64,000 nucleotides of DNA from Escherichia coli (GTDB taxonomy: Bacteria; Pseudomonadota; Gammaproteobacteria; Enterobacterales; Enterobacteriaceae), in assembly GCF_045037415.1 (NCBI RefSeq), contig NZ_CP173439.1; one strand, given 5' to 3'. Position 1 is the first letter of the stretch. The number at the start of each line of letters is the position of its first letter. The notes under the pieces were generated by a model. That model was not told where the DNA came from. It worked only from the letters and a program-made list of their open reading frames with translations, and searched no databases. The translations under genes and the position numbers were made by a program. Positions 1-43,872 of this stretch are shown in pieces.

Positions 1-317
1 CTACCGGGGAGGAAGGAAAGTACCGGATGGAAAGAGTCCCCACTAAAGCAGACTGACAGACATCACAAATCCCCGGGAGGGGACTTGTGTATAAGAGACA
101 GCTCAGATACAGGGAAAGTGCAGAATGGCAACTATGATGTCTGGCGGCAATGCGAGTTCACCGGAACGATACATAGATTCTGTTTACCTCTCTCTCAACG
201 AGTTTAGTCTCCAGGATTCCCGGGGCGGTTCAGTCTGGCGACTCATCCTAATCATGCCTGTTTCCCATCCAACGGGAAAACCTGGGGTATTTCCCATATA
301 CTGGCCAGAGCATTTTC

Positions 318-1124
318 TCAGGATAATTGTTTCAGCATCACAACCGCATCAGATTCCGGCATCGCAAACTGCACCCGGTGCCGTGCAGCCACATCCAGCG
401 CAAACACCTTCGTGTAGACCTCCGTTGAGCTGATGGACTTATGCCCCATCAGGCTCTGCAGGACCTTCAGCGGTATACCGGCATACAGCATGTGCATCGC
501 ATAGGAATGGCGGAACGTATGTGGCGTGATCGGGACAGAGAACGTCACACCATCAGCGGCAGCGGCGGCAACCGCTTCCCCAATCCAGGTCCTGACCGTT
601 CTGTCCGTCACTTCCCAGATCCGCGCTTTCTCTGTCCTGCCTGTTCGTTTATTACGCCGTTCCATGGGGATTTTCAGTGTTGCCACCATCGTCTGCAGCT
701 GGCTGACGTACCAGGAGTCGGAGAGCGGGACCAGCCGGTGAGTCTGCTGACCGGCTGGCATTCTTCCTGCCGTCCTGGCGGCTTTTTCGGTCCGTTGTTT
801 CAGGGTCGCAAGCTGCACAAACGGATACGGAGGCGTGAGCGAAAAATCCCCCCGCGTCAGCGCTAGTGCTTCATTAATACGCGCGCCGGTGTTCCACAGA
901 GTGGCCAGCAGCATCTTGCGGCGCAGATCCGGGACATAATGAAGCAGGGCACTCACCTCGGGAGCCAGCAGATATTTCGGCAGTTCATCATGAACCATCG
1001 ACATCTGGCGGAGTGCCAGAGCTGCCGGATAATCAATGGCAACAGGAAGTTGTGCAGACTGTCCGGCAGAATACACTGCCGGTACCATGGCTGCAGACTG
1101 GCTGTGTATAACGGAGCCTGACAT
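318..1124 (-). CDS. resD: ResD tyrosine site-specific recombinase (F-plasmid D protein, multimer resolution)
   Basis: 268-aa ORF; translation matches F-plasmid ResD as recalled (MSGSVIHSQSAAMVPAVYS..., HxxR/Y recombinase C-terminus); sits directly downstream of ccdB as in F. Confidence 0.85.
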   Translation of the reverse strand: MSGSVIHSQSAAMVPAVYSAGQSAQLPVAIDYPAALALRQMSMVHDELPKYLLAPEVSALLHYVPDLRRKMLLATLWNTGARINEALALTRGDFSLTPPYPFVQLATLKQRTEKAARTAGRMPAGQQTHRLVPLSDSWYVSQLQTMVATLKIPMERRNKRTGRTEKARIWEVTDRTVRTWIGEAVAAAAADGVTFSVPITPHTFRHSYAMHMLYAGIPLKVLQSLMGHKSISSTEVYTKVFALDVAARHRVQFAMPESDAVVMLKQLS

Positions 1125-1650
<526 letters not shown>

Positions 1651-2244
1651 AATGCACCTCATCTTACATACTCTCTGTACACCATTAAGTATACACCAGT
1701 ATTACGCTATAACATGCCTCCGGCAACGGAATATTGTTATCCAGCTATTATTAACACCACCATCAATAACTGACCTGAAAAGTAATCATGACAATAATAA
1801 CCTGCAATGTAGTAACCATGATAAATTACAGGATGACTGTTTTTCTATGATCCGATTTTTATCGGATTCAGGATTTTCCGGAAGTGAATCAGGATCAGTG
1901 AATAAGCGAAGCGATCTTTTCTGCCGCTGATGACTGGCTCGGGAACACGGGAAGAAACACAACATACAGTGTCATGTCAGCGGAGCGGGACACCACATCC
2001 TGTGAAAGCGGACCAGCGGGCGGCAGCGAAGGATCCGCGGATCCGGAACCACCAGAAACCGGATCTGCGTGATGAGAAAAGAGTAGTAGATATGATTTTA
2101 TATAAAAAACATAAAACCATACCAGGCGTGATGTTTGTCATAATATATAAATTCATACCTGATATGATATTTACCAAAGTAGAGATAAATTATTCGCTGT
2201 ATGATTTTACCTATTAATGCACATAATCAAATGGAGCATGCAGG

Positions 2245-2514
2245 ATGGATGAAAAAGTATACTTTCGCCTCAGCTATGAAACGATGACCGGCGATACGGA
2301 AGACTTCATTAACGCATGTATTGAACGGGCAAACCGTGCGGACTGCAACGATACCGATGCGGAGATTGCCCGCGCACGCAGCACCATTGAACTCTGGTAC
2401 TGTCTGGCACTCGCGGGGCGTGCCCCAGACGACGTCGCCGACAGGGATCATCTGCGGTTCACCGAAATGCTCCTGCGCGCCCCGACAGCAGAACAACGCG
2501 CATGTCAGCTGTAA
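2245..2514 (+). CDS. hypothetical protein (high-GC gene)
   Basis: 89-aa ORF divergent from ccdA; noticeably GC-rich relative to neighbours; no recognisable family. Confidence 0.35.
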   Translation: MDEKVYFRLSYETMTGDTEDFINACIERANRADCNDTDAEIARARSTIELWYCLALAGRAPDDVADRDHLRFTEMLLRAPTAEQRACQL

Positions 2515-3098
2515 CCTCCCGTGGGCCGTCGCCGCTGCAACGACGGGTGCTGATTGTGCTGGCTGCCCTTGATGAAAAACGGCCTGGCCCCGTGCTGACT
2601 CGGGACATAGAACGGGTGCTGGAGCGAAGCGGGGAAGCCCCGGTCTACGGACCAAACCTGCGCGCCTCCTGCCGGCGCATGGAAGCATCAGGCTGGCTTC
2701 GCACACTGCGCGCCCCGAATCTGCAGCTGGCTGTCGAACTGACGGACGCCGGCCGGGCCGTGGCACAGCCTCTGCTGCTGGCAGAACAGGACCGCCTCCG
2801 GGCAAAACAGCGCGCGGCAGAAGTCGTCGTACTGCCGCTGGTCCCGGCATCAGGTCTGCCCGCAGACGGCACTTCTGCCACTGATCTGGCGGTGGAGCTG
2901 AACGGCATGACGTATCAGGCCTGCCGTGGGGATTTTGTGGTACGTCTCGACGGCAGCACCTGTCTGCAGTTATGGAACAGAGAAGGCAAGGTGGTACGCC
3001 GGGAGGGCGATCCGCTGGAAGTGGCGCAGTGGCTGCAGGCCTGTCATGATGCCGGAATAAAAGTTCGTGTACAGGTTAATGAAAGTATCACCCCGTAA
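2502..3098 (+). CDS. hypothetical protein, possible winged-helix N-terminus
   Basis: 198-aa ORF overlapping the upstream ORF end; N-terminal LQRRVLIVLAALDE...VLTRDIERVLE resembles a DNA-binding fold; GC-rich. Confidence 0.45.
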   Translation: MSAVTSRGPSPLQRRVLIVLAALDEKRPGPVLTRDIERVLERSGEAPVYGPNLRASCRRMEASGWLRTLRAPNLQLAVELTDAGRAVAQPLLLAEQDRLRAKQRAAEVVVLPLVPASGLPADGTSATDLAVELNGMTYQACRGDFVVRLDGSTCLQLWNREGKVVRREGDPLEVAQWLQACHDAGIKVRVQVNESITP

Positions 3099-3165
3099 AA
3101 ACATGCCTGCACGATTCACACATCATCCCATGGTGGCAGCCGGTTAACTTTCCTGCACCACCAGT
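3075..3165. repeat. Inverted-repeat copy A (~90 bp) bounding the AT-rich lasso island; partner at 9035..9125
   Basis: Reverse complement of 9035..9125 matches this stretch with a few mismatches (shared ...ccccgtaaaaacatgcctgcacg...catcccatggtggcagccggttaactttcctgc...). Confidence 0.6.
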
Positions 3166-3463
3166 GGAAAGAGGCCATGAGCAGTCCGAACAAAAAACCA
3201 CCCGTGATACTTATAATAATGGCCTCACCGGCCACCATTCCTGACGGCCCCCAGTAGATAAACCACATTGCACATCCCCAGGAAATGCCCCATAAGCCCC
3301 CCGTCAGCACCGTGACCTGCCAGAACGGCATAAAGGGTAATGGCGGAAGCCGGATCCCCAGCCGCCAGAGAATACGCAGAAGAGGAGGGGCATAATTGCT
3401 CCGCCACATCTTTTTGCTGTCCATCAGGGCAATGGCCCGGGCTTTTTTCTGCTCAAAAGTCAC
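3116..3463 (-). CDS. hypothetical small membrane protein
   Basis: 115-aa ORF with hydrophobic helices (LWGISWGCAMWFIYW, IIISITGGFLFGLLMASF); its last ~17 codons are duplicated in inverted orientation near 9040..9090. Confidence 0.5.
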   Translation of the reverse strand: MTFEQKKARAIALMDSKKMWRSNYAPPLLRILWRLGIRLPPLPFMPFWQVTVLTGGLWGISWGCAMWFIYWGPSGMVAGEAIIISITGGFLFGLLMASFHWWCRKVNRLPPWDDV

Positions 3464-3573
3464 AGGAGTACCTCCGTTCCATGATGTAAACGTGACACAG
3501 TTTATTGTTATTGATTATTATTATCATTATGTTATCACGCACCAGTACACGATGACAATAAAGGAGAAACCAG

Positions 3574-3921
3574 ATGAAAGCGGATATATCTGTAAAGTAT
3601 TTTCTGAAAAGCCTGATACCAGGTTTCATTATTCTTACAGTTTTTTATCTGGGATGGAAAGATAACCAGGAAAATTCAAGAATGTTTTATGCGTTCATCG
3701 GATGCATTATCAGCTCCATTACTTTTCCTTTTTCAATGAAGATAATACAGAAAATGGTAATAAGGTTTACAGGGAAAGAAGTCTGGCAAAAAGACTTCTT
3801 TACTAATCCAGTTGGCGGAAGCTTAACTGTAATATTTGAATTATTCTGTTTCGTTATATCAGTTCCTGTAGTTGCCATTTACTTAATATTTATATTCTGC
3901 AAAACCCTTTCAGGAAAATGA
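3574..3921 (+). CDS. small polytopic membrane protein, unknown function (first gene of the AT-rich island)
   Basis: 115-aa ORF with about three hydrophobic segments; AT-rich codon usage like the lasso genes downstream. Confidence 0.5.
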   Translation: MKADISVKYFLKSLIPGFIILTVFYLGWKDNQENSRMFYAFIGCIISSITFPFSMKIIQKMVIRFTGKEVWQKDFFTNPVGGSLTVIFELFCFVISVPVVAIYLIFIFCKTLSGK

Positions 3922-4456
3922 AAGGGCATCATTATATGTCAGATACCAATAAGTTTATTGTTCTGCTCAATAAACTTATCATTAACAAGCGCACTCACAG
4001 CAGCCATAATAATTGCAAAACCCAGAATACCTACAAGGGTCCCCGGCATGACGGAAAACGTCCATGCGGTAACAGATGAAGTAGCTCTTCCTGCTGCCAG
4101 TGATTCAAGTTTTACAAAAAATGGACGCCAGTTATCTGTCCAGACAACCTTACCAAACTCAGTGCTCCAGTCAGCAAAATCGTTGCCTTCAGTACACCGT
4201 GTTTTCTCTTCAGCTCTCTTCTGGTTGATGTCGGCAAGCTGGCAACAAAAATTCTCTTTTTACGTCAAGAACGTCATTTGCATGTTTTTACTCATTTGTT
4301 CTGGCACTGACGTTATTTCTCGCCGAATTTACCGCAGATTCAGCAAAGGTGATTTTATTGTAACTGCAACACCTACCAGATGACGGAAAACGGGTGAACG
4401 GATTAGAGTACGATTTTTCCATTTCGTGATCTTCACCTCAGAACCCCACCATTGAT

Positions 4457-4475
4457 GATAAAAATGATTATCATT
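4457..4475 (+). promoter_or_regulatory. Fur-box-like sequence next to the precursor promoter
   Basis: gataaaaatgattatcatt matches about 13 of 19 positions of the Fur consensus GATAATGATAATCATTATC; inner tgattatcatt is one mismatch from tgataatcatt. Confidence 0.3.
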
Positions 4476-4479
4476 CGCA

Positions 4480-4507
4480 TTGACACTTTGAAATAAGTAG
4501 TTATATT
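4480..4507 (+). promoter_or_regulatory. putative sigma-70 promoter of the lasso precursor gene
   Basis: TTGACA (4480..4485), 16-bp spacer, TATATT (4502..4507); about 70 bp upstream of the precursor ATG, which has an AAGGA Shine-Dalgarno. Confidence 0.35.
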
Positions 4508-4576
4508 TTTCATGGTTATTGAGCAATTGGTAACCAATGTAGGTTGTAGGTGTTTCATTTTCATTAAGGAATATGT

Positions 4577-4765
4577 ATGAAAAAACAATCTAAAGAAGTG
4601 AAAACCTCTGGCTCTGAACATCGTGAAATTATGATAGAAATTGATGCCTCTAAATCGACGAACGGTACCGGTGGAGGCTCCATCATTGAAGGGTCATACA
4701 CTGTCTATCGCTGCGATGGCGGAAGTGTCCCCTCGCGTCCTTTTGGCCCCCCATTCTGTCCTTAA
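4577..4765 (+). CDS. putative lasso-peptide precursor (A gene)
   Basis: 62-aa ORF MKKQSKEVKTSGSEHREIMIEIDASKSTNGTGGGSIIEGSYTVYRCDGGSVPSRPFGPPFCP; good SD; immediately upstream of the cyclase; Thr near the leader end, Gly-rich core start, Glu at a ring-forming distance, aromatic and Cys residues in the tail. Confidence 0.6.
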   Translation: MKKQSKEVKTSGSEHREIMIEIDASKSTNGTGGGSIIEGSYTVYRCDGGSVPSRPFGPPFCP

Positions 4766-4892
4766 ATTTAAAGGCTGGTCATGATTGAAATATTCACTTC
4801 TCTCAAACGAAAGCAATGAATCCGATAATACAGGTATATTCGATAAAAAGGACGTCTTTTGTGGCGTCCTTACCTTAAGGAGATTATTACGA

Positions 4893-6281
4893 ATGTCTTT
4901 GGGGGATAAATTTACATCTGGATACCGTGGGATTAATGCCTTCAATAGTGGCGTGATAAAACTTCTTGTTGCCAGAGAAAATGACTGGATTGAAGAAAAA
5001 CTTAGTGCCATTTTAACTCAATCACCTCGTATTGATTTCGAACCACTCATTGCGAGTATAGTTTTTGGGCGTACTGAGGGGAAAACTTCATTATTTAAAA
5101 ATGTGGAATGTATTGTTCCTGGTTGCAGTTTTAAAATTGACCACACGCACAATGGTGCATCCGTAAGTGAATATATTGACTGGAATGCAATTTCATATAA
5201 GACATTACCGCACGACCCGGCAGAGATTCTTTTTCAGTCTGTATCTGAAGTCGTCAACAGAAATCAAGGCGGATACTTTGTTGTGCGCCTGTCTGGTGGC
5301 ATGGACTCTACTGGCATTCTTCTCTCACTAATGGAGGCAGTTGATGTAAGCAGAATTATTGCCATAACTTATCGGTACCTTATGGGGACAAGCAATCAAG
5401 ATGAAGTATCAGCAAGGTATTTATGTAAAATATTTGGAATCAGGCAAATAATAATTGATTTTGAACCTCATTCATTATTTCATAGGCTTCCTTCACCAGT
5501 GCCTCCTGTTCTAAATATGAGAACAATAAATTTTAAAGTTTATGAAGAGGAAAGAAAGCGTATCGGAAGTATCTGTGGAGATAATTATACCCTGTTTGAT
5601 GGGCATGGGGGGGACCATGTATTTTGTGAGAAAATCCCGTTTGGAATAATAAAAGAGTTATTTTTCCATGGGAGTTTGTTAACCTCATGCCGTAAGTTAT
5701 TACAGATAGCTCGCCTTCATGGCATAAATATGAAAGATGTCTTATTAATGCATACTAATAGTATGCATTATCTTATAACTGAAGCACAGTGTTATTTTTC
5801 CAAAGATGTTATAAAAAACCTTCACTATGACAGAAAAACAGTAAGTGAAGAAAGAAAGTCAGCCCTTCAGGAGGCTATTCTTGATAATGGGACGAGCCTG
5901 ACGCTGAGTCTTACGGAAAACGATATATTCCCTTTTACAGACCAGAGGATGATAGGCTATGGTCTGAAACTCAGAGTTGAGGAGTCATTTGATACTACAT
6001 CAAAACGATTTCAATACAGAAAAGCGATTAATGACAGATATAAATTTGTATTTACCAGAAAAGATAAGGGGCATATAACAGGTGCATATCAGTCGGCCCT
6101 TAGTGTTAATAAGGACCGTGTTATTAATCTTCTGCGCCATGGGCAGTTCGCGACACACGGTTTGTTAAACTTGGAGGGGGTAGAGCGAGCAATAGAAACA
6201 AGTTCTCATGGCATCGGTGGAGTCAGTTTTATTCTTATGAAATTAATTGCTGCAGAACTTATCTTTGAAGGATATTTATAA
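4893..6281 (+). CDS. lasso-peptide cyclase (asparagine synthetase B-like, C protein)
   Basis: ORF 4785..6281 with the likely start at ATG 4893 (AAGGAG SD); PP-loop ATP pyrophosphatase motif VVRLSGGMDSTGIL; size like McjC; stop overlaps the next start (TAATG). Confidence 0.75.
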   Translation: MSLGDKFTSGYRGINAFNSGVIKLLVARENDWIEEKLSAILTQSPRIDFEPLIASIVFGRTEGKTSLFKNVECIVPGCSFKIDHTHNGASVSEYIDWNAISYKTLPHDPAEILFQSVSEVVNRNQGGYFVVRLSGGMDSTGILLSLMEAVDVSRIIAITYRYLMGTSNQDEVSARYLCKIFGIRQIIIDFEPHSLFHRLPSPVPPVLNMRTINFKVYEEERKRIGSICGDNYTLFDGHGGDHVFCEKIPFGIIKELFFHGSLLTSCRKLLQIARLHGINMKDVLLMHTNSMHYLITEAQCYFSKDVIKNLHYDRKTVSEERKSALQEAILDNGTSLTLSLTENDIFPFTDQRMIGYGLKLRVEESFDTTSKRFQYRKAINDRYKFVFTRKDKGHITGAYQSALSVNKDRVINLLRHGQFATHGLLNLEGVERAIETSSHGIGGVSFILMKLIAAELIFEGYL

Positions 6282-6964
6282 TGACTTCATTCTACTTTAA
6301 GCCGAATATACATCATGTCAATATTAATAATGAAATAACTATCCTTGATGAGATATCTGATCGTTATATCCTTCTTTCAGAAAAGCAATCAATTCTCTTA
6401 AAAGAGTATATGAGTGATGGTTCTCATAATTATGTCGGTGATACAATGAACCTGGAAGGTATAATTTCTAAGGAGTCGGGTACTCCTTTGGCAAAGAGTA
6501 CTCCGTCTCCTCAGGGGGTTGGTATATTGACCTGGAACAGTTATGTCAGCACTCGGTTGGGTATTGCCAGTTTTTTTTATATCTCTGAAGCAATAATGAG
6601 AATGATTCTTGTCCGAAAACGTCTCCAGTCAAAGGGTTTTCACCATTGCCTTGAGCATTGTCGTTGTGCGCTTAGCCAGAAGAGTTTTCCGTACATTTCC
6701 CTGAAAGATAAATTAATTATTGGGCAGAAGTTGAGCCAGAGTATTAAAATTGCGGCACCGTTTATCCCGGGCAAGGTTAAATGCCTTGAGTTTTCACTTG
6801 TTTTGTTCGACATGTTAGTGTCAAGAAAAATCAGTCCCACATTATTTATTGGATTCCAGCGCTATGATTTTCTTTCTCATGCATGGCTGGAAATTGATAA
6901 TGAAGTGGTTGCAGACCAAGATAACCTGAAAACAAAACTTACACCAATAATTAGAGTGGGATAA
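6281..6964 (+). CDS. lasso-peptide leader peptidase (transglutaminase-like Cys protease, B protein)
   Basis: 227 aa; candidate Cys...His...Asp triad (KVKCLEF ... LSHAWLEIDNE) with spacing like McjB; translationally coupled on both sides. Confidence 0.7.
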   Translation: MTSFYFKPNIHHVNINNEITILDEISDRYILLSEKQSILLKEYMSDGSHNYVGDTMNLEGIISKESGTPLAKSTPSPQGVGILTWNSYVSTRLGIASFFYISEAIMRMILVRKRLQSKGFHHCLEHCRCALSQKSFPYISLKDKLIIGQKLSQSIKIAAPFIPGKVKCLEFSLVLFDMLVSRKISPTLFIGFQRYDFLSHAWLEIDNEVVADQDNLKTKLTPIIRVG

Positions 6965-8688
6965 TGAAAATAAAAAATGTCATTTGTGAATTAAAATCAG
7001 GGGCAAGTGCTTACTCTTCGGCCTACAAGCTCATACGCTCACTGTATCCCGCATTCACATTTTCTTTTATCGGTGTGTCCATTCTCTTTATTCTGGCTTC
7101 GGTTCTTGGTGCATTACTTCCTTATCTGCTCAAAAAGACAGCGGAGGCGTATACTTTCTCTGAAGGGATATTATCTGCATTTTTCCTGATCACAATGACC
7201 TACGCCGTCAGCTGGACAGTGACCGAAGTACTGAAGAATATCAGAGGCATTTTTTCTGCGGGAATTCTGGCACAAGCAGATGCAGCACTAACCAGTAACA
7301 CGATGGAGATTTTACTTTCTATTAGTTTCCGGAAACAAAAGGAATTTGAGCCGGCGGTCCTGGCTGCAAATATTGATCGTGGCGCGCAATCATTCAGTGC
7401 GCTGACATTATCTGTTTTCTGGACACTACTCCCAATTACTGTAGAAATCAGTATGGCTGTTTATTTTCTTTATCAGAGTCTGGGTTTTACTTATTCACTT
7501 ATTTTCTCAATTTCTGTTATAGGTATGATTTTTCTTGCCTTCAGCATAGCGATCTTTAGTCGTCATATCCATACCGATATAATGAATACTCAGAATGGGG
7601 TGTATTCTTATACGATTGAGCGACTTGCCATGCCGTTGGATATCCGAATTAATTCAGCTCATGCAAAAGAAAGAGTTCTTCGCCAGGAAATTCTTAATCA
7701 GTATGTTAATACAATTAAGCTGACCAATAAAAAAATGGGCTTTTTACTGTCACTACAGGCAGTAGCTGTAGGCGTATTGCTTGCTATATCCGTACTGGTT
7801 CTGGTTTTTTTTAAAAAAGCGTCTCATATTGGAACTGGTGACTTTATTATGATTGTGGGCTATATTAGCATGCTAACATTTCAGTTGCGCACAATAGCCG
7901 GAGCCAGCATTGACATTCAACGCCAGATTGTGTACCTGAAAATTCTTCTGGAATATAACAGTATGCATCCCGAAGGGGTTATCCCTGATACAGTAAGCTC
8001 CCGCAGCACTGAGCGTATTTTTGATGTGCGTAATCTTGGAGCTTTTGCTGACGGCAGACTCCTCTTTAATAATGTGAGCTTCAGGATCCATGAAGGTGAA
8101 ATGTTTGCACTTTCTGCGCCTTCAGGTTTTGGTAAATCCACAATTCTGCAATATTTACTCGGTCTTGATACCCCAACTGAGGGCGATATTTATTTCCGAG
8201 GATACCGGATTAACACAGAGTTGAGTGCGTCTATCCTGGAGGACGTTGCTGTTGTGCCTCAAAAAGCCGTTCTGGTGCAGGGAACTATTCGTGATAATAT
8301 TCTGTATGGAACCGATGACATTCTTCCCGATGATGAACTGTTTTGCATCCTGAATTCATTGGGGTTAATTAAAGAGGACTGCGGAGAACATTTCCTTGCT
8401 TTCCTAGACCGGGATATTAATCCTCTGGGTAGTGGTTTGAGTGGTGGAGAGATCCAGCGATTATGCATAGCCCGCGCCCTAGCCCGTAAGAAAAAGATTA
8501 TCGTACTTGATGAACCCACGGCCTCTATTGGCGAAGAACTCGCGATAAAGATCATTACCTATATCCGGCAGCATTGCCCTACCGTTATTATTACAACTCA
8601 TAATCCACGAATTCTGGAGCTCGCCGATCATTTTTTTGATGGTATGTCAAAGTCTTGCGTCATTGCTGGAGAAGGCAGAGACCAATAA
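6964..8688 (+). CDS. ABC exporter (fused permease-ATPase, McjD-like export/immunity, D protein)
   Basis: 574 aa; N-terminal multi-TM domain; Walker A APSGFGKST, signature LSGGEIQR, Walker B IIVLDEPT. Confidence 0.85.
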   Translation: MKIKNVICELKSGASAYSSAYKLIRSLYPAFTFSFIGVSILFILASVLGALLPYLLKKTAEAYTFSEGILSAFFLITMTYAVSWTVTEVLKNIRGIFSAGILAQADAALTSNTMEILLSISFRKQKEFEPAVLAANIDRGAQSFSALTLSVFWTLLPITVEISMAVYFLYQSLGFTYSLIFSISVIGMIFLAFSIAIFSRHIHTDIMNTQNGVYSYTIERLAMPLDIRINSAHAKERVLRQEILNQYVNTIKLTNKKMGFLLSLQAVAVGVLLAISVLVLVFFKKASHIGTGDFIMIVGYISMLTFQLRTIAGASIDIQRQIVYLKILLEYNSMHPEGVIPDTVSSRSTERIFDVRNLGAFADGRLLFNNVSFRIHEGEMFALSAPSGFGKSTILQYLLGLDTPTEGDIYFRGYRINTELSASILEDVAVVPQKAVLVQGTIRDNILYGTDDILPDDELFCILNSLGLIKEDCGEHFLAFLDRDINPLGSGLSGGEIQRLCIARALARKKKIIVLDEPTASIGEELAIKIITYIRQHCPTVIITTHNPRILELADHFFDGMSKSCVIAGEGRDQ

Positions 8689-8712
8689 ACCACACACGTT
8701 AATTCATTTATA

Positions 8713-8980
8713 TCTAATCGGGGTTGTACGCCGGAAACGCCGAAATTTCCGATACAGCGAATTTGTTGATTTTTGAAGCATGTTTGGCAGGTTTTGACGT
8801 GTACGTTTATGGTGCAGTAAGTGAGAATTTATTCGTACCAGCCATATGATACGTTACGGGCAGTGATTTTTCGCGCTAGACAGCTATTTCTTTGCTGTCC
8901 GGTTAACTGTGGTCTTACGTACAGGTTGCCGAGCATAAAATTTGTGCCTCCCGGAAATTTCGGCGTTTCCGGCGTACAAC
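8713..8980. mobile_element. miniature inverted-repeat element (~268 bp) with 32-bp perfect terminal IRs beginning GGGG
   Basis: GGGGTTGTACGCCGGAAACGCCGAAATTTCCG at 8713..8744 and its exact reverse complement at 8949..8980; no ORF between. Confidence 0.45.
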
Positions 8981-9034
8981 CCCAAATAAATTCAATTAAT
9001 TACCTAAACAAGGTGAGACTTTTAGAGGAAATGA

Positions 9035-9125
9035 GCGCGGAACCCCTCTTTCCACTGGTGGCGCAGGAAAGTTAACCGGCTGCCACCATGGGATGATGTG
9101 TAAACCGTGCAGGCATGTTTTTACG
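9035..9125. repeat. Inverted-repeat copy B (partner of 3075..3165)
   Basis: Contains an inverted duplicate of the 3' end of the 3116..3463 gene (reads ...SFHWWRRKVNRLPPWDDV*) plus its downstream sequence. Confidence 0.6.
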
Positions 9126-9137
9126 GGATGATGCTTT

Positions 9138-9169
9138 CATTTGGATATAGAGAATTATTGTACGTTCAG
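9138..9169. repeat. partial copy of a 38-bp Tn3-family-like terminal repeat (tttggatatagagaattattgtac...)
   Basis: Shares the core tttggatat.ga.aattattgtac with copies at 32001, 42145 and 56465. Confidence 0.4.
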
Positions 9170-9465
9170 CACAACAAACTTAATACTAATGTATGCATAC
9201 ATTAGCATTAACTACACATTTAAGACATTAACCATTAATAATGTGTATTATTACACAATATTACCCATCAGGAAGCACGTCGTCAGTATTAGAAAAAAAT
9301 TACAAACGCTCGCCGCAGGCCCAGCGACCGAACGTTAGTGAGCGAGGAAGCGGAAGAGTGTCAGGTCTGAATTGAGCACATACGCCAGAAATTATATAGT
9401 AAAAAGATATATGATTTTTACATTGCTCAGTAGATTGTAAAATGCTGCTGATTGGATATCTATAT

Positions 9466-9852
9466 CTAATTTAGAATAATGGCTTTAAGATGGTCAGAAA
9501 CCATCTTCCAGTTATATTCTCCTGTTGCAGCATTCAAAGCGATAATTTGCATTTCATCAAACGAAATACGTGAACTAATAATATGTACACCATTCCGTTT
9601 TAAAAAAACCTGTGCAACAAACAAGGCTGTTCGCTTATTTGCATCGTTGAAAATGTGACCACGAGCAATAGCAACTAAATACACGGCAGCCAGATCCATA
9701 ATATCTGTCACACCTTCATAATGATACATGTTCAAAACACGATGAATGATCGCGTCAGCGCGACCGGGTTCTGGCATACCCGCCACGCCACCATCACGCG
9801 AAATCAAGCGGTCATGAAACTCAATCACTTCCTGTGAACTAACGAATTTCAT
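9466..9852 (-). CDS. doc: Doc toxin (Fic/Doc family)
   Basis: 128 aa with the Doc motif HIFNDANKRTA; overall similar to P1 Doc as recalled; overlaps the phd stop. Confidence 0.8.
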   Translation of the reverse strand: MKFVSSQEVIEFHDRLISRDGGVAGMPEPGRADAIIHRVLNMYHYEGVTDIMDLAAVYLVAIARGHIFNDANKRTALFVAQVFLKRNGVHIISSRISFDEMQIIALNAATGEYNWKMVSDHLKAIILN

Positions 9853-10073
9853 CGCTTAGAAAGCTCCGTATAGGCCGTCCCATGACTTTGCATGATCTCA
9901 GCAAACTCAGCATCAAGAGCCGCTTTACGGTATCGTTCAAAAGCGTCTTTATCAACTAGTACAGCCGCGCCACCTTTACGGCGCTGAATCTCAACAGGCT
10001 GATTTTCATCAACCGCCAGCTCGAGCAACGAGGCCAGGTTATCGCGAGCATGGCTATAGTTACATGTAAACAT
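9849..10073 (-). CDS. phd: Phd antitoxin (Phd/YefM family)
   Basis: From internal Met: MFTCNYSHARDNLASLLELAVDENQPVEIQRRKGGAAVLVDKDAFERYRKAALDAEFAEI..., close to P1 Phd. Confidence 0.75.
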   Translation of the reverse strand: MFTCNYSHARDNLASLLELAVDENQPVEIQRRKGGAAVLVDKDAFERYRKAALDAEFAEIMQSHGTAYTELSKR

Positions 10074-10090
10074 AGTGCTTCCTCTTTGAG

Positions 10091-10111
10091 TTGTACAATT
10101 AAATTGTACAA
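10091..10111. promoter_or_regulatory. putative phd-doc operator: two TTGTACAA palindromes
   Basis: ttgtacaattaaattgtacaa about 20 bp upstream of the phd start; each 8-mer is self-complementary. Confidence 0.35.
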
Positions 10112-10260
10112 CAGTTCTGTTCAATATGAAATCACCGTAGTAAGGGGGGCGTGCCCATTTCCTCTAAAAGTCTCACCTTTATTATGTAATTAATTGAGTT
10201 TATTTAGAAAATGTTGCAATTTTAGCATCATTTTTTATTGTTCTTTTTAACCTGAAGTAG

Positions 10261-10297
10261 GGGGCCGCTTGGAATTCGGAAATTTTCCCACGCTAAG
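10261..10297. repeat. Tn21/Tn1721-subgroup-like 38-bp terminal IR remnant abutting IS21 copy 1
   Basis: GGGGCCGCTTGGAATTCGGAAATTTTCCCACGCTAAG resembles the Tn1721 IR as recalled (GGGG...AATTCGGAAA...ACGCTAAG). Confidence 0.4.
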
Positions 10298-10357
10298 TGT
10301 CAACGCCACGATGTTTGACCGTTATTTGCCATTTTCATGCCCGCTAAGATACTTTCG

Positions 10358-12327
<1,970 letters not shown>

Positions 12328-13153
12328 GTTGATGTCCTTTCTGGTGTGAGAACCTTAAGGAAACAACATGTTGGGTGGAGCGGACAATCCAAATGGTGAA
12401 TTACCGTCTTATATCACTGGCGCTGACACGGCGTAGAACCCCGAGAAAACGAGAGCATGAAAACCCCCAGGACAGTCACTGAATGGGGGACCAGCAGCGG
12501 TAAAATAACCGACATAATTTCATAATGATGCCTCCGTTAGTTATGAAGGTTTGCGGGCTGACTATACTGTTGGTGCCTGAGCAGAACTGAAGGATTGAGC
12601 GTGTTTCTGATGGAGAGTTCCACAGGTATCCACGAGATTGATTATGCCACCAGAAACACGCTCGGATGCGTTTTAACGTTACTTTTACTGGCAGGCAAGG
12701 TTTCTTTGTTTTATTTGTATTCTGACTCTCAGAATGACTCTGTTCGCTCCATAAATATTAAAATTATCAGGTAGAAGAACTCTCTTTTGTACAACTTAAC
12801 TGTGTCTTTATGGAAATGTTGTAAAGGTTCTTTTCTTTAGCTGTATCGTATTTAAATATACTTTTCTGTAAGTGGAATCTTTGCATAAGATAATAAAAAA
12901 CAGCAAATTATATTAATGGTTATGATATCCTGGGAACACCTGATTAACTAATAAGTTATTTTAATAAAAACATCTGCACTGGCAAATAATTGTACCCCCT
13001 TCAATAGGAATATTCTTATTTAATGGCCTTGTTTATATTCTAAAAATAAAACTGAGAAACTCATCATATATTTGGTAAGAAAACGCACCGGTGAACACTA
13101 TCATGAGGCTATACTGCACTTCCTCAAATTGGGATATTATGATGCATTGATTC

Positions 13154-28847: not shown

Positions 28848-28908
28848 GTGTCAACGCCACGATGTTTGACCGTTATTTGCCATTTTCATGCCCGCTAAGA
28901 TACTTTCG

Positions 28909-30878
<1,970 letters not shown>

Positions 30879-32000
30879 GTTGATGTCCTTTCTGGTGTGA
30901 GAACCTTAAGGAAACAACATGTTGGGTGGAGCGGACAATCCAAATGGTGAATTACCGTCTTATATCACTGGCGCTGACAAACAGGGATATTGCGACAATT
31001 CACAGCAATATCGTGCAGGAATACAACACCCTTAAAGGGTATAGCTGGAAATGGCTGGGTGGGGTGTCAGTGGCTTTTCTGGTTATGTTCTGTGTGCTCG
31101 GATGGGGAATGAAAACAATACTCGACAGGAACTACAACGCCACAGCGGCGGTGTATCAGAAAGTTGTGACACTGGAAGATAAACTGGTGGAGAAACCTGT
31201 CACGGGGAAGAGCCGGAAAAACTGACGCGCTTCGCTTGTCCAACGCCTCACGACCCGCGAAAGAATTTCGCGAACCGTTCACTGTTTTTTTCAATATGAT
31301 TCTGTCTGCTTTGGTCGATAAAGCAGACGATAGTATTCCAGCCTTCGTATATATAACGGTACGTGCTCATCAGTAAGAGCTGGCGGTATTGTGTTATCAG
31401 GGGGAAGTTTTTTCAGATACTCACGAAATGCCTGGCTTGATGCCATAAAATCTACAGCTGCATCGATAATATGTGGGATATTTTCATCTAATTTTGTCAT
31501 GATGATTGATCTGATATTATCACGGTTCGTGAATTATAGTATGTCACTATTATTTATGCTTTAGTGAACCAGAAAAAATCCCCCGTTGGTATAGGGGGAT
31601 ATGTAAGGAGAAATAACTTCGCAGGTGTTCTTGTTTGTATTATAACGTGAAAAGAATGCACGCAACTTAATTAATCTGCCGTACTTCCTTTCAGTTTTCA
31701 AGATAAGGTTTATAATAAAACATGGAATGGAAGCAAGCTTTAAGGTTTCAGCTCTAAAATTTTTAATATCTATTAACTAGCTAGTTGTTGTCCTTGTGAG
31801 CATGTTGTATATAAAAGCTAGGATAATATCCTGACCGGAGTATTCATATTCCTTATCCCCTCTGTGTTCTCAGAGGTTTTTTTCTGTATTTAATGATATG
31901 AGCTGGAATGCGATTCCGGCCCCCCCCGTTTACATAATTCTCCCTGACATACGGCACCGGAATCGCATTGATTTTGCATTGCTAATGTCTAACTGTGCTG

Positions 32001-32038
32001 GTGAATGTTGGGGGCAGTTTGGATATCGAAAATTATTG
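32001..32038. repeat. 38-bp Tn3-family-like terminal repeat copy (GGGGCAGTTTGGATATCGAAAATTATTGTACGTTAAGG)
   Basis: Starts GGGG, ends ...GTTAAG like Tn3-family IRs; related copies at 42145 and 56465. Confidence 0.45.
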
Positions 32039-32042
32039 TACG

Positions 32043-32389
32043 TTAAGGTTGTTTTTTGACCTTGTCGGGGTCCGCCTGCGGGCAGTAGAGATCATATAAG
32101 GTATTCAATAACGTCATGATGCGGTTATCCCCGATACGGTAATATACCATTTTACCTGCCCGTCGGGTTCGACCAGCTTCAGGCGACGCATGACACCCAA
32201 CTGCTGAGACAGGGTCGGCTGAGTGATACCGACCGCCGCTTCCAGCTCGGTCACATTCGCTTCCCCCTGGCTTAACTGACACATCAACAATAGCCGGTCG
32301 CTGTTGGCCAGTCCCCGTAGGACATCTGCTGCCCCCAGGGCTGCATTTTTCATATCAGTCTGACGTTTTGTGTCTTCATTCATGGGCAT
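32043..32389 (-). pseudogene. ArsR/SmtB-family regulator (BigR/YgaV-like), apparent frameshift
   Basis: HTH region (NVTELEAAVGITQPTLSQQLGVMRRLKLVE) in one frame and the expected wing (GKMVYYRIGDNRI...LYDLYCP) in an overlapping frame; break near a G-run around 32160..32200. Confidence 0.55.
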
Positions 32390-32510
32390 TGCTGGTTTCT
32401 TATATTATGTATTTTTATATAATATTGTTCAGTATAATGATAGTGGCGTAATTTTGCCACCGTGATCTTCAGGTCTGCAGCGTCCAGCTGGACCGGGTAA
32501 CTAATTATAT

Positions 32511-34208
32511 ATGGCAGATATTTTGCCCCGAGTGAACAGAGAGGATGTAATGAAAATAGTGATTGTTGGTGGTGTTGCCGGGGGAGCATCCGCTGCAGCC
32601 AGGGCTCGTCGGTTATCAGAGGATGTCAGTATTGTTGTGTTTGAGCGGGGAAGCGATGTCTCTTTCGCCAACTGTGGATTGCCTTATCATATAGGCGGAA
32701 AAATTCCGTTACGGCAGTCGCTGATTCTGAAAACCCCGGAGGATTTTAAATCCCGTTTTAACATAGACGTCCGTATCCGTCATGAAGTGATGTCAGTAGA
32801 CCCGGTTAATAAGATGGTGACGGTTAAAAATCTGACCTCCGGGGAGGTCTATACCGAAGAATGGGATCGTCTGCTCCTCAGTACCGGTGCCGCTCCGGTT
32901 GTTCCCCCCTTGCCCGGACTACAGGAAGCGGGTGTCTTTACACTGCGAAATCTTACTGACATGGATGCTATCCAGGCGTGGATTGAGCAACATAATATCG
33001 CTCACACCACGCTTGTCGGGGGGGGATTTATCGGGCTCGAAGTGATGGAGGCACTGAGCGAAAGGGGGATCAGTGTGACCCTGCTGGAGATGGGGGAACA
33101 GGTTATGGCTCCGGTTGATCCTGAAATGGCATCGGCCCTGCATCAGGAAATCAGGAGTCATGGCGTGGATCTGCGTCTCAGAACGGCGCTCACCGAGGTA
33201 CTGCGGACAGAGACGGGATTCCGCGTTGCACTGTCTGACGGTGGGTTTCTGCAGACCGACATGGTTATTCTCGCCATCGGGGTAAAACCTGAGAGCAGCC
33301 TTGCCACAGGAGCCGGGCTCGCCGTGGGTAAACGGGGAGGCATAAGTGTCAATGCCTGTATGCAGACAAGTATCCCTGACATCTATGCCGTGGGGGATGC
33401 AGTTGAAACACCTGACCTTGTCTTTCAGGAACCCGCTAATGTTCCTCTGGCAGGGCCAGCCAACCGCCAGGGACGCATTGCTGCTGATAATATGCTCGAT
33501 CGTCACAGCCTTTACCATGGCAGTCAGGGGACATCCATTTGTAAGGTATTTTCGCTGAGTATTGGCAGTGTCGGGGCGAATGAAAAGCAGCTGAAAGCCC
33601 ATGGTACCCGATACGAGAAGGTTTACGTCCATGCCGCTGATCATGCCAGTTACTACCCGGGGGCAACAATGATCAGTCTGAAACTGCTGTTCAGCCCCGA
33701 TACCGGTAAAATTCTCGGGGCCCAGGCGTCAGGGAAAAAAGGGGTTGATAAACGCATCGATGTCCTGGCTGTCGTACAGCGCGCGGGGCTTACCGTTAAC
33801 GATCTCGAGCATCTGGAGCTGACCTATGCTCCGCCTTTCAACAGTGCAAGGGACGTCGTTAACCAGGCTGGAATGGTGGCGGCAAATGTTATCAAGGGTG
33901 ATACGGTCATCTGTCATGTCCGCGATGTGTTACAACGGGAACCGGGCAGTTATTGTTTACTTGATATTCGTTCTCCTGCAGAACTGAAACAATTTGGTGA
34001 ATATCCTGACGCGCTATCCATCCCTCTTGATTCCCTGCGGGAGAATCTTGATAAGTTGCCTGAAGATAAAGAGATTATTATCGGGTGTCAGAGTGGTCTG
34101 CGGGGGCATGTGGCATACCGTATGCTTCAGTCTCACGGCTTCCGGACATATAATCTGAGTGGTGGTTTTATAACTTGGCAGGCGGTTACGGAATCAATGA
34201 GTCAATAA
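32511..34208 (+). CDS. CoA-disulfide/persulfide reductase with C-terminal rhodanese domain
   Basis: 565 aa; FAD-binding GGVAGG start, pyridine-nucleotide disulfide oxidoreductase core with redox Cys (SFANCGLPY), C-terminal rhodanese with active-site Cys (IIIGCQSGLRG). Confidence 0.85.
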   Translation: MADILPRVNREDVMKIVIVGGVAGGASAAARARRLSEDVSIVVFERGSDVSFANCGLPYHIGGKIPLRQSLILKTPEDFKSRFNIDVRIRHEVMSVDPVNKMVTVKNLTSGEVYTEEWDRLLLSTGAAPVVPPLPGLQEAGVFTLRNLTDMDAIQAWIEQHNIAHTTLVGGGFIGLEVMEALSERGISVTLLEMGEQVMAPVDPEMASALHQEIRSHGVDLRLRTALTEVLRTETGFRVALSDGGFLQTDMVILAIGVKPESSLATGAGLAVGKRGGISVNACMQTSIPDIYAVGDAVETPDLVFQEPANVPLAGPANRQGRIAADNMLDRHSLYHGSQGTSICKVFSLSIGSVGANEKQLKAHGTRYEKVYVHAADHASYYPGATMISLKLLFSPDTGKILGAQASGKKGVDKRIDVLAVVQRAGLTVNDLEHLELTYAPPFNSARDVVNQAGMVAANVIKGDTVICHVRDVLQREPGSYCLLDIRSPAELKQFGEYPDALSIPLDSLRENLDKLPEDKEIIIGCQSGLRGHVAYRMLQSHGFRTYNLSGGFITWQAVTESMSQ

Positions 34209-34486
34209 GAGATGAGGTGCCATACACATGGCACCTCATCTTCCAGATTCATTGAAAACGTATTATATGGAATAGAAATCTACAAAAATAATTAACACCC
34301 TGGATGGTACCCTATTGCGATAATGTGGACTGTTCAAAAAACAGGCTTACCGTACAATAATTCTCTATATCCAAACTGACCCCAATGTTCCTGAATGTAA
34401 ATCTCCGTACAAAGATATCGTTGAGTTTTATATAATTCATTGTTTTTATTGTGTTTTGTTTTTTTTGGTTGTGCTGGTTTGTAGTT

Positions 34487-42657: not shown

Positions 42658-42984
42658 ATGACTAAAAATACTCGTTTTTCCCCCGAAGTCCGTCAACGGG
42701 CAGTCCGTATGGTTCTGGAAAGTCAGGGCGAATATGACTCACAATGGGCGACAATTTGTTCCATTGCCCCAAAGATTGGCTGTACACCGGAGACTCTGCG
42801 TGTCTGGGTACGCCAGCATGAGCGGGATACCGGAGGCGGTGATGGCGGGCTCACCACCGCTGAACGTCAGCGTCTGAAAGAGCTGGAACGTGAAAATCGT
42901 GAACTGCGCCGCAGTAACGATATCCTTCGCCAGGCTTCCGCTTATTTTGCGAAGGCGGAGTTCGACCGCCTCTGGAAAAAGTGA
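42658..42984 (+). CDS. IS629-like OrfA
   Basis: 108 aa, HTH plus leucine-zipper region. Confidence 0.85.
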
Positions 42985-43872
42985 TGCCACTGCTGGATAA
43001 GCTGCGTAAGCTGTACGGGGTCGGACCGGTATGCAGTGAACTACATATTGCCCCGTCAACGTATTACCACTGTCAGCAACAGCGACATCATCCTGATAAA
43101 CGCAGTGCCCGTGCGCAGCGCGATGACTGGCTGAAGAAAGAGATACTGCGCGTATACGATGGGAATCATCAGGTATACGGTGTGCGTAAAGTCTGGCGTC
43201 AGTTGTTACGGGAAGGAATCAGGGTAGCCAGATGTACAGTGGCGCGCCTCATGGCGGTTATGGGACTTGCCGGTGTTCTCCGGGGTAAAAAGGTCCGCAC
43301 TACCGTCAGCCGGAAAGCCGTTGCCGCAGGCGACCGCGTAAACCGTCAGTTTGTGGCAGAACGTCCTGACCAGTTGTGGGTGGCTGATTTTACTTACGTC
43401 AGCACATGGCAGGGGGTCGTCTATGTGGCGTTCATCATTGATGTGTTTGCCGGATACATCGTGGGGTGGCGGGTTCTCATCGTCCATGGAAACGACATTC
43501 GTGCTGGATGCACTGGAGCAGGCGTTATGGGCCCGTCGACCGTCCGGCACGGTCCATCACAGTGATAAAGGTTCTCAGTATGTATCGCTGGCCTACACAC
43601 AGCGGCTTAAGGAAGCCGGATTACTGGCATCAACAGGAAGTACAGGCGACTCGTATGACAACGCGATGGCGGAGAACATCAATGGTCTTTACAAAGCGGA
43701 GGTAATACACCGTAAGAGCTGGAAAAACCGTGCAGAAGTGGAACTGGCCACACTCACGTGGGTGGACTGGTATAACAATCGACGATTGCTGGAAAGGCTG
43801 GGCCATACTCCTCCGGCAGAAGCAGAAAAAGCTTATTATGCTTCCATCGGAAACGATGATCTGGCAGCCTGA
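42981..43872 (+). pseudogene. IS629-like OrfB (DDE transposase) with an internal frameshift
   Basis: Two overlapping ORFs (42981..43565 and 43351..43872) each carry part of the OrfB sequence; frame switch near 43480. Confidence 0.7.

Follow-up and report, generated by a model that had tools for sequence, protein, structure and literature searches.

The closest characterized relative of the locus described here is the phd-doc operon of the phage-plasmid P1 (Phd YP_006570, Doc YP_006571), in which the toxin Doc phosphorylates EF-Tu and Phd is both a labile antidote and a repressor (PMC4803016). Phd binds Doc through its C-terminus, and the Phd:Doc ratio decides whether Doc serves as co-repressor or de-repressor (PMC4803016). 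Modules of this kind are a common addiction system on Escherichia coli IncI1, IncF and IncB/O/K/Z plasmids (PMC7822866). We analyzed a 64,000-nucleotide stretch of E. coli DNA (contig NZ_CP173439.1 of assembly GCF_045037415.1; hereafter the window) in which an initial annotation had placed a phd-doc addiction module at positions 9466-10111. This locus is very probably a functional type II toxin-antitoxin (TA) operon of the P1 type that serves as a plasmid-maintenance, or addiction, module. We favor this reading because both open reading frames (ORFs) are intact, the catalytic motif is kept, operator-like palindromes are present, both genes are under strong purifying selection and the module occurs only on plasmids.

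The antitoxin gene comes first and the toxin gene overlaps it, which is the single-operon layout of P1-type phd-doc. The phd stop and the doc start share an ATGA at 9849-9852, an arrangement that suggests translational coupling; the P1 genes have the same order and also overlap at stop and start, by 1 nt. An ORF finder lists an alternative TTG-started phd ORF of 91 amino acids (aa), which is not needed. The parts of the operon are:

9466-9852, minus strand: doc, encoding a 128-aa Doc toxin of the Fic-fold kinase family with the motif H66-IFNDANKR74-TA.
9849-10073, minus strand: phd, encoding a 74-aa Phd/YefM antitoxin, with its ATG at 10073 and TGA stop at 9849-9851.
10079-10085, minus strand: Shine-Dalgarno sequence AGAGGAA, 5 nt ahead of the phd ATG, from direct reading of the sequence.
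10090-10112: putative Phd operator, two TTGTACAA palindromes (10091-10098 and 10104-10111) that together make one perfect 23-bp palindrome.
10103-10130, minus strand: predicted sigma-70 promoter from a consensus scan, with -35 TTCATA at 10130-10125, a 16-nt spacer and -10 TACAAT at 10108-10103.

Both proteins score above the cut-offs of the relevant protein families. Doc matches Pfam Fic/DOC (PF02661; 2.2e-11, 44.8 bits, cut-off 24) and NCBIfam DOC_P1 (TIGR01550; 85.1 bits, cut-off 38.65), and Phd matches Pfam PhdYeFM_antitox (PF02604; 9.2e-10, 38.6 bits, cut-off 29.8) and NCBIfam TIGR01552 (22.5 bits, cut-off 20.8). The top matches in the PDB are P1 Doc for the toxin (3k33, 3dd7 and 3kh2) and P1 Phd for the antitoxin (3hry), the P1 Phd structure match spanning residues 3-71. 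These results bear out the initial annotation, which had described a toxin with the Doc motif HIFNDANKRTA and a Phd-like antitoxin. The E. coli yefM-yoeB pair has an antitoxin of the same fold family (PF02604), but its toxin YoeB is a RelE-fold RNase, whereas Doc here is a Fic-fold kinase. Phd matches the YefM structure 2a6q weakly and scores 31.6 bits against the NCBIfam YefM equivalog, far under its cut-off of 121.

Doc-type toxins carry the motif HxFx(D/N)(A/G)NKR, in which Lys-Arg replaces the Gly-Arg of the Fic motif. The toxin in the window reads H66-I-F-N-D-A-N-K73-R74, and its alignment to P1 Doc is gapless before residue 93, so that H66, K73 and R74 keep their positions, HIFNDANKRTA is identical in the two proteins and GHIFNDANKRTAL is unchanged. 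Aligned with P1, as had been proposed at the outset, Doc is 51% identical (63 of 123 residues; E = 3e-42) and Phd 43% (32 of 74), and the catalytic motif is not lost. Within Phd the C-terminal KAALDAEFA (residues 49-58) is conserved without change. Protein sizes are also close, at 73 and 126 aa in P1 against 74 and 128 here; Doc here differs from its P1 counterpart by a 4-residue insertion near residues 94-97. The module is carried by an extrachromosomal replicon in both cases, a phage-plasmid for P1 and conjugative IncF, IncI2 and IncK/Z plasmids for the present lineage.

Tandem palindromes had been noted just upstream of phd, and we find them at 10091-10098 and 10104-10111 in an arrangement that matches the P1 operator. 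In the P1 promoter Pphd, the -10 box TATAAT is followed by T, GTGTACAC, ATAAC and GAGTACAC, so that two palindromes with GTAC cores stand 13 bp apart, centre to centre. The two TTGTACAA palindromes here also have GTAC cores and the same 13-bp spacing, and in both operons they coincide with the -10 box or follow directly after it. They match the P1 layout and appear to be spaced for two Phd dimers. The half-sites differ in that P1 has GTGTACAC and GAGTACAC where the present operator repeats one sequence within a single perfect palindrome, and in that the -10 box abuts the first site in P1 but overlaps it here. The regulatory region of yefM-yoeB likewise has two palindromes, one long and one short, with a TGTACA core (PMC4803016). 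Four copies of TTGTACAA occur in the window against 0.98 expected. Homologues of 84-99% identity retain the operator; these are copies of the module on IncF, IncI2 and IncK/Z plasmids and an Edwardsiella copy with 84% DNA identity. Because the predicted -10 box falls within the upstream palindrome, bound Phd would be expected to occlude it.

Comparison with the Edwardsiella copy also gives a measure of selection on the two genes. For doc the ratio of nonsynonymous to synonymous divergence (pN/pS) is 0.07, with 9 aa changes and a pS of 0.59; for phd it is 0.01, with 1 aa change and a pS of 0.65. These values indicate strong purifying selection on both genes, with synonymous divergence near saturation. 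The module is present in 61 of the 72,556 plasmids in PLSDB and in 58 of 5,426 complete E. coli genomes, where all 60 places are on plasmids and none is chromosomal. At least five plasmid backbones carry it; its neighbors on the small IncF and IncI2 plasmids are repA on one side and the gene of a ParA/MipZ-type partition ATPase on the other. Selection, plasmid-only distribution and replication-partition neighborhood all fit the classical plasmid-addiction role. A tblastn search of PLSDB with Doc returned about 1,270 P1-type records (<60% identity) and about 50 of the present lineage (>=90%), with almost none between. The two proteins thus appear to represent a discrete lineage, about 50% identical to the P1 pair and rarer on plasmids.

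If the P1 mechanism holds, Doc would phosphorylate EF-Tu at Thr382 and so arrest translation, and Phd dimers, labile through ClpXP proteolysis, would neutralize Doc through their C-terminal helix. Phd dimers would also repress the operon by binding both palindromes, with Doc bridging them and excess Doc relieving repression (conditional cooperativity). Plasmid-free segregants would then lose Phd first and subsequently arrest.

Over 8700-10350 the window shows 100% identity to a set of E. coli IncF plasmids resembling pVR50B, and pVR50B, which types as IncFIA/FIB/FIC plus Col156, is collinear with positions 1-12428 of the window at 99.9% identity. RefSeq annotates the two proteins on pVR50B as a type II toxin-antitoxin system death-on-curing family toxin (WP_000673985.1) and a Phd/YefM family antitoxin (WP_000493532.1). 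A lasso-peptide/ABC-exporter cluster lies upstream of phd-doc and an IS21 element downstream. The same annotation supplies a further TA pair 8 kb away:

1125-1430 and 1432-1650, minus strand: ccdB and ccdA, a second type II TA system adjoining the FIA replicon, as annotated by RefSeq on the corresponding pVR50B segment.

The region was thus rightly credited with two type II TA systems, ccdAB and phd-doc, the former on the RefSeq annotation of identical pVR50B sequence. hok/sok, a candidate third killing system, is present on pVR50B and absent from the window. No further TA genes were found among the ORFs scanned in the window segments that are not collinear with pVR50B, and the segment 8600-10400 gave no Rfam match at threshold, its two matches (E ~0.6) being at chance level.

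Several points weigh against reading the locus as a working addiction module. We infer toxicity, EF-Tu phosphorylation, Phd lability, operator binding and plasmid stabilization from P1 proteins that are 43-51% identical to those here, and the promoter call is a consensus match at 9 of 12 positions only. TA modules on plasmids can have other roles, such as phage defence and plasmid competition, and Doc weakly matches PADLOC candidate models (PDC-M59B, 1.5e-9). Moreover, with ccdAB and partition systems also on the plasmid, phd-doc could contribute little to its stability. The weak PADLOC matches and this redundancy of stabilization speak for a rival reading, in which the pair is retained chiefly for abortive infection of phages or for action against competing plasmids. 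We regard that alternative as unlikely: the module is exclusively plasmid-borne and sits beside replication and partition genes, the locus has no defence-island context, and P1 phd-doc, the closest characterized relative, is a classic addiction system (PMC4803016).

The module had also been proposed to have moved as a cassette, on the strength of an inverted repeat of about 50 bp at 8981-9030 and 10150-10203. The repeat is present and significant, with those coordinates a few bases off. Its arms lie at 8984-9039 and 10150-10205 (56 nt, 89% complementary), and gapped extension takes them to 8984-9060 and 10133-10205 (77 nt, 83%, E = 3e-15). A 24-mer is exact in both arms, and none of 100 shuffles contained such a match. 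The features that make up the two junctions are as follows, a MITE being a miniature inverted-repeat transposable element and TIMEs being Tn3-derived miniature elements:

8720-8983: MITE-like element, 264 bp, with perfect 32-bp GGGG-tipped terminal inverted repeats (GGGGTTGTACGCCGGAAACGCCGAAATTTCCG).
8984-9046, minus strand: left arm, a second, diverged and truncated inverted copy of the element end seen in the right arm, with a CCCC tip at 9043-9046.
9045-9141, plus strand: DUF6404 gene fragment, 97 bp comprising the 3' end and downstream sequence, 94.8% identical to the intact copy at 3078-3174 and inverted relative to it.
9141-9170, plus strand: truncated relic of a Tn3-type 38-bp inverted repeat, TTGGATATAGAGAATTATTGTACGTTCAG, without the GGGG tip.
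9171-9465: non-coding DNA that travels with doc on small IncF plasmids, with no Rfam match.
10144-10259, plus strand: right arm, an outer Tn3-type end with a GGGGGG tip at 10144-10149, a ~40-bp terminal inverted repeat and a resolvase 3' end.
10260-10297, plus strand: Tn3-type 38-bp inverted repeat, GGGGGCCGCTTGGAATTCGGAAATTTTCCCACGCTAAG, the left end of a 286-bp TIME.
10298-12428, minus strand: IS21 copy inserted in the TIME, with istB at 10358-11158 and istA upstream of istB.

The minus strand of the right arm encodes the last 19 codons (YFRLKRTIKNDAKIATFSK, then the stop) of a serine-resolvase gene, corresponding to its helix-turn-helix C-terminus. The 116-bp unit at 10144-10259 recurs on other plasmids at 90-92% identity, and a Citrobacter IncX5 plasmid (L015) holds an intact 193-aa resolvase (Pfam Resolvase PF00239, 3.7e-38). 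The resolvase stop lies ~65 bp from the tip, and all copies end at a sharp boundary, ...GGAAATGGGCGCGAACCCC(C), beyond which the DNA differs at seven independent junctions. In pAA of E. coli O104:H4 (L014), the terminal ~40 bp recur in inverted orientation (GGGGTTCTGCGCCCATTTCCTCCAAAAGTCTCTCTCTTAG), joined to the resolvase gene at codon ~17, and the inverted pair delimits an element of ~630 bp. The repeat has the form GGGG(G)TTCGCGCCCATTTCCTCTAAAAGTCTCACCTTGCTTAGG, with an inner end of TTAG(G) rather than the canonical TAAG; its length of ~38-40 bp, GGGG start, occurrence as an inverted pair delimiting an element and linked resolvase agree with Tn3-family repeats. Because the boundary is sharp and shared, a resolvase is linked and pAA holds an inverted pair, the arms are best read as copies of the GGGG-tipped ~40-bp terminal inverted repeat of a resolvase-carrying Tn3-type element.

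Searches for the autonomous parent gave no transposase: a 24-mer scan of 100,044 representative genomes had 0 matches, and tblastn recovered the intact resolvase of the Citrobacter plasmid with no linked transposase. The interior of another copy (L004) is a mosaic of IS91 and a HigA-like antitoxin. The pAA element itself (NZ_CP136554.1, 5593-6222) has umuD on one side and the aggDCBA fimbrial genes on the other. Its ~40-bp GGGG-tipped inverted repeats flank a serine-resolvase gene truncated at the N-terminal end, and this resolvase, which lacks the catalytic-serine region, is labelled in RefSeq as a 188-aa 'recombinase family protein'. On pECOED (NC_011754.1, IncK2/Z; 422-1137) a resolvase-linked tip stands ~50 bp upstream of the start of the TA operon yacAB. 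Two of the seven tip junctions thus abut a TA promoter, too few to call a preference.

In every plasmid context examined, some GGGG-tipped end abuts the module, on the phd side at ~30-75 bp from the phd start. Four of the abutting ends can be assigned to the 38-bp Tn3 pattern or to the resolvase-linked repeat, and the others were judged GGGG-tipped by eye. On the phd side the end is the resolvase-linked repeat in the window, a different one (GGGGGCGG..., by eye) in pECOED and only a GGGGG run at the same point on small IncF plasmids; on the doc side it is a full 38-bp repeat (IncF plasmids), a 258-bp TIME (pECOED) or another repeat (pSTEC299_1). One could imagine that the module edges are preferred landing or recombination sites for Tn3-type ends, or that the module spreads by hitch-hiking on Tn3-derived miniature elements, but we hold both to be distinctly unlikely. 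This speculative attraction of Tn3-type ends to the module, or their help in shuffling it, is the sole novelty that remains.

Carriage of phd-doc as Tn3-derived cargo was considered separately and rejected: the 38-bp repeat of small IncF plasmids points inward on the doc side, and no inverted match was found on the phd side within 3 kb. The locus does resemble the TA pairs of Tn3-family transposons in that a type II TA operon adjoins Tn3-family inverted repeats and a resolvase remnant (PMC7157771). Those pairs, however, lie inside the element beside res and tnpR and have ParE, Gp49, PIN or HEPN toxins, whereas the module here lies outside the element ends, with no linked transposase or res site. 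Doc is nowhere mentioned among Tn3-family TA toxins in Lima-Mendez et al. 2020 (PMC7157771).

The cassette proposal, namely that the module is a composite or TIME-COMP-like mobile unit that transposed with the ~56-bp repeats as its termini, did not hold up and in our view is highly unlikely. To its credit, the inverted repeat is statistically real and a true transposon-type terminal repeat, the same module is found on at least five backbones, and TIME-bounded composites are known to move genes in Enterobacteriaceae (PMC13367494). The orientation of the arms nevertheless speaks against it. The interior of the right arm points rightward, away from phd, and that of the left arm points leftward, where it is cut at 8984 by the MITE. 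Because the tips face each other and the interiors point away, the module lies outside both element copies, whereas a transposase needs the tips outermost.

The history of the arms is likewise at odds with a shared transposition. The arms match copies on other plasmids at 92-95% identity (95% for the left arm against L003) but one another at 83-89%, and no 5-6 bp direct repeat brackets them (TCTTT at 9047-9051 outside one tip, AGTAA at 10139-10143 outside the other). By contrast, a unit at 32010-34383 bounded by Tn3-type inverted repeats, which served as a positive control, has an AATGTT duplication on both sides. The DUF6404 fragment and an unrelated truncated Tn3-type repeat separate the left arm from the module. 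pSTEC299_1 has the right arm without the left, which argues that the arms were acquired separately; they are independently acquired relics of a Tn3-type outer end.

Distribution gives no better support to movement as a unit. The arrangement arm-module-arm occurs only in 19 pVR50B-like records, and five other contexts lack arms at the module borders, as IncFII-like, IncI2, IncK2/Z and Edwardsiella plasmids show. The core shared with the window runs from 9141 to 10147 on small IncF plasmids, from 9241 to 10131 in pECOED, from 9465 to 10135 on the IncI2 plasmid and from 9473 to 10109 in Edwardsiella. The flanks of the outer MITE and TIME also differ (TAATC against TGGAT). A TIME-COMP built from these two elements, the 264-bp MITE and the 286-bp TIME, was tried as a candidate and rejected: the elements bracketing phd-doc have different inverted-repeat types and, unlike TIME-COMPs, no shared 5-6 bp direct repeat. 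phd-doc sits in a graveyard of Tn3-derived relics whose repeat ends point the wrong way for moving it, and the flanking inverted repeats are unrelated to the working of the module.

There is next to no chance that the locus is a remnant in decay, caught without function between insertion relics. In favor of this reading, the surroundings are heavily rearranged, and many ~50-kb plasmids keep only the last ~107-113 bp of doc, showing that the module does get deleted. Against it, neither ORF is shortened here and the RefSeq proteins recur unchanged on several backbones; pN/pS is 0.01-0.07; the predicted promoter, the operator, the Shine-Dalgarno sequence and the ATGA coupling show no damage; and the transposon end stops 14 bp short of the predicted -35 box, on its upstream side, without interrupting it.

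The region around the module had been described as repeat-rich junctions, and Tn3-derived miniature elements together with IS21 account for this. TIMEs are mostly plasmid-borne and overlooked by annotation pipelines (PMC13367494), and the 264-bp and 286-bp elements here share with them GGGG-tipped repeats (32 and 38 bp), a largely unannotated state and a plasmid location. The 264-bp MITE is an independent unit in other plasmids; 197 PLSDB records match a query that contains it (8700-9040), and among the matches listed it is unannotated. In one copy (L005) it adjoins a full-length resolvase end. In the window it has no flanking direct repeat (TAATC against AAATA), and neither it nor the 286-bp element could be matched to the named TIMEs IS101, MITESen1, TIME244 and IMU. 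Plasmid pRHB14-C14_3 (L011) has the 286-bp TIME intact; in the window IS21 interrupts it at 10297/10298, and its remainder is absent.

The 5% divergence between the DUF6404 fragment and the intact gene in the window points to probable import from another F-like plasmid, not to a local duplication; about 2,900 plasmids conserve this DUF6404 stretch. The relic at 9141-9170 marks the start of homology to the small IncF backbone, and the full repeat, GGGGTCTGCTTGGAGATCGGAAAATTTTGTACGTTAAG, is present in two of these plasmids (L007, L008). Within the adjoining non-coding DNA, a near-perfect 32-bp palindrome at 9180-9211 (TTAATACTAATGTATGCATACATTAGCATTAA) is 97% conserved in the same two plasmids and matches no Rfam family; a related copy lies at 4416-4459 in L004. 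The stretch CGCTCGCCGCAGGCCCAGCGACCGAACGTTAGTGAGCGAGGAAGCGGAAGAGTG (9300-9360), which travels with doc on small IncF plasmids downstream of repA, seems to resemble closely the sequence just downstream of the ColE1/pBR322 origin (...AGTGAGCGAGGAAGCGGAAGAGCG), presumably a primosome-assembly (n') site. This stretch might be what is typed as Col156.

Elsewhere in the window, the 2.37-kb unit used above as a positive control (region 32004-34389) has inverted 38-bp Tn3-type repeats at 32010-32047 and 34346-34383 with AATGTT on both sides. By collinearity with pVR50B it encodes an ArsR/SmtB-type regulator and a FAD-dependent oxidoreductase, with no transposase, and looks like a transposed non-autonomous Tn3-derived passenger element. 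The lasso-peptide cluster immediately upstream of phd-doc (4577-4765 and 6281-8688) includes a B2-type maturation protein and a 574-aa ABC exporter (6964-8688). A 62-aa candidate lasso precursor, MKKQSKEVKTSGSEHREIMIEIDASKSTNGTGGGSIIEGSYTVYRCDGGSVPSRPFGPPFCP, is annotated only as hypothetical; it is presumably not microcin J25 itself. A leader ending ...STN and a core starting GTGGGSIIE would allow a G1-E9 ring.

Two IS21 copies (10298-12428 and 28848-30978) bracket ~16.4 kb that hold a Rep3-type (FIB-like) replication gene, an integrase, an IS3-family transposase and a TonB-dependent receptor. Because this segment is not at the matching position in pVR50B, its placement suggests an IS21-mediated rearrangement. 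The only Rfam match at gathering level in the window is an ALIL pseudoknot (RF01497, 116 bits) at 42939-43055, a frameshift element of the IS3 family.

Since the exact proteins already stand in RefSeq under the correct family names, the finding is already known, and phd-doc being a textbook addiction system, its importance beyond correct annotation is small. The junctions of IncF virulence plasmids are dense in unannotated Tn3-derived miniature elements and lone inverted-repeat relics. A more general lesson is that inverted repeats around a gene pair can be back-to-back transposon ends and not the boundaries of a cassette. For the Phd-Doc family, a lineage about 50% identical to P1 with a more symmetric operator offers a handy natural variant for work on operator specificity and Phd-Doc cross-talk.

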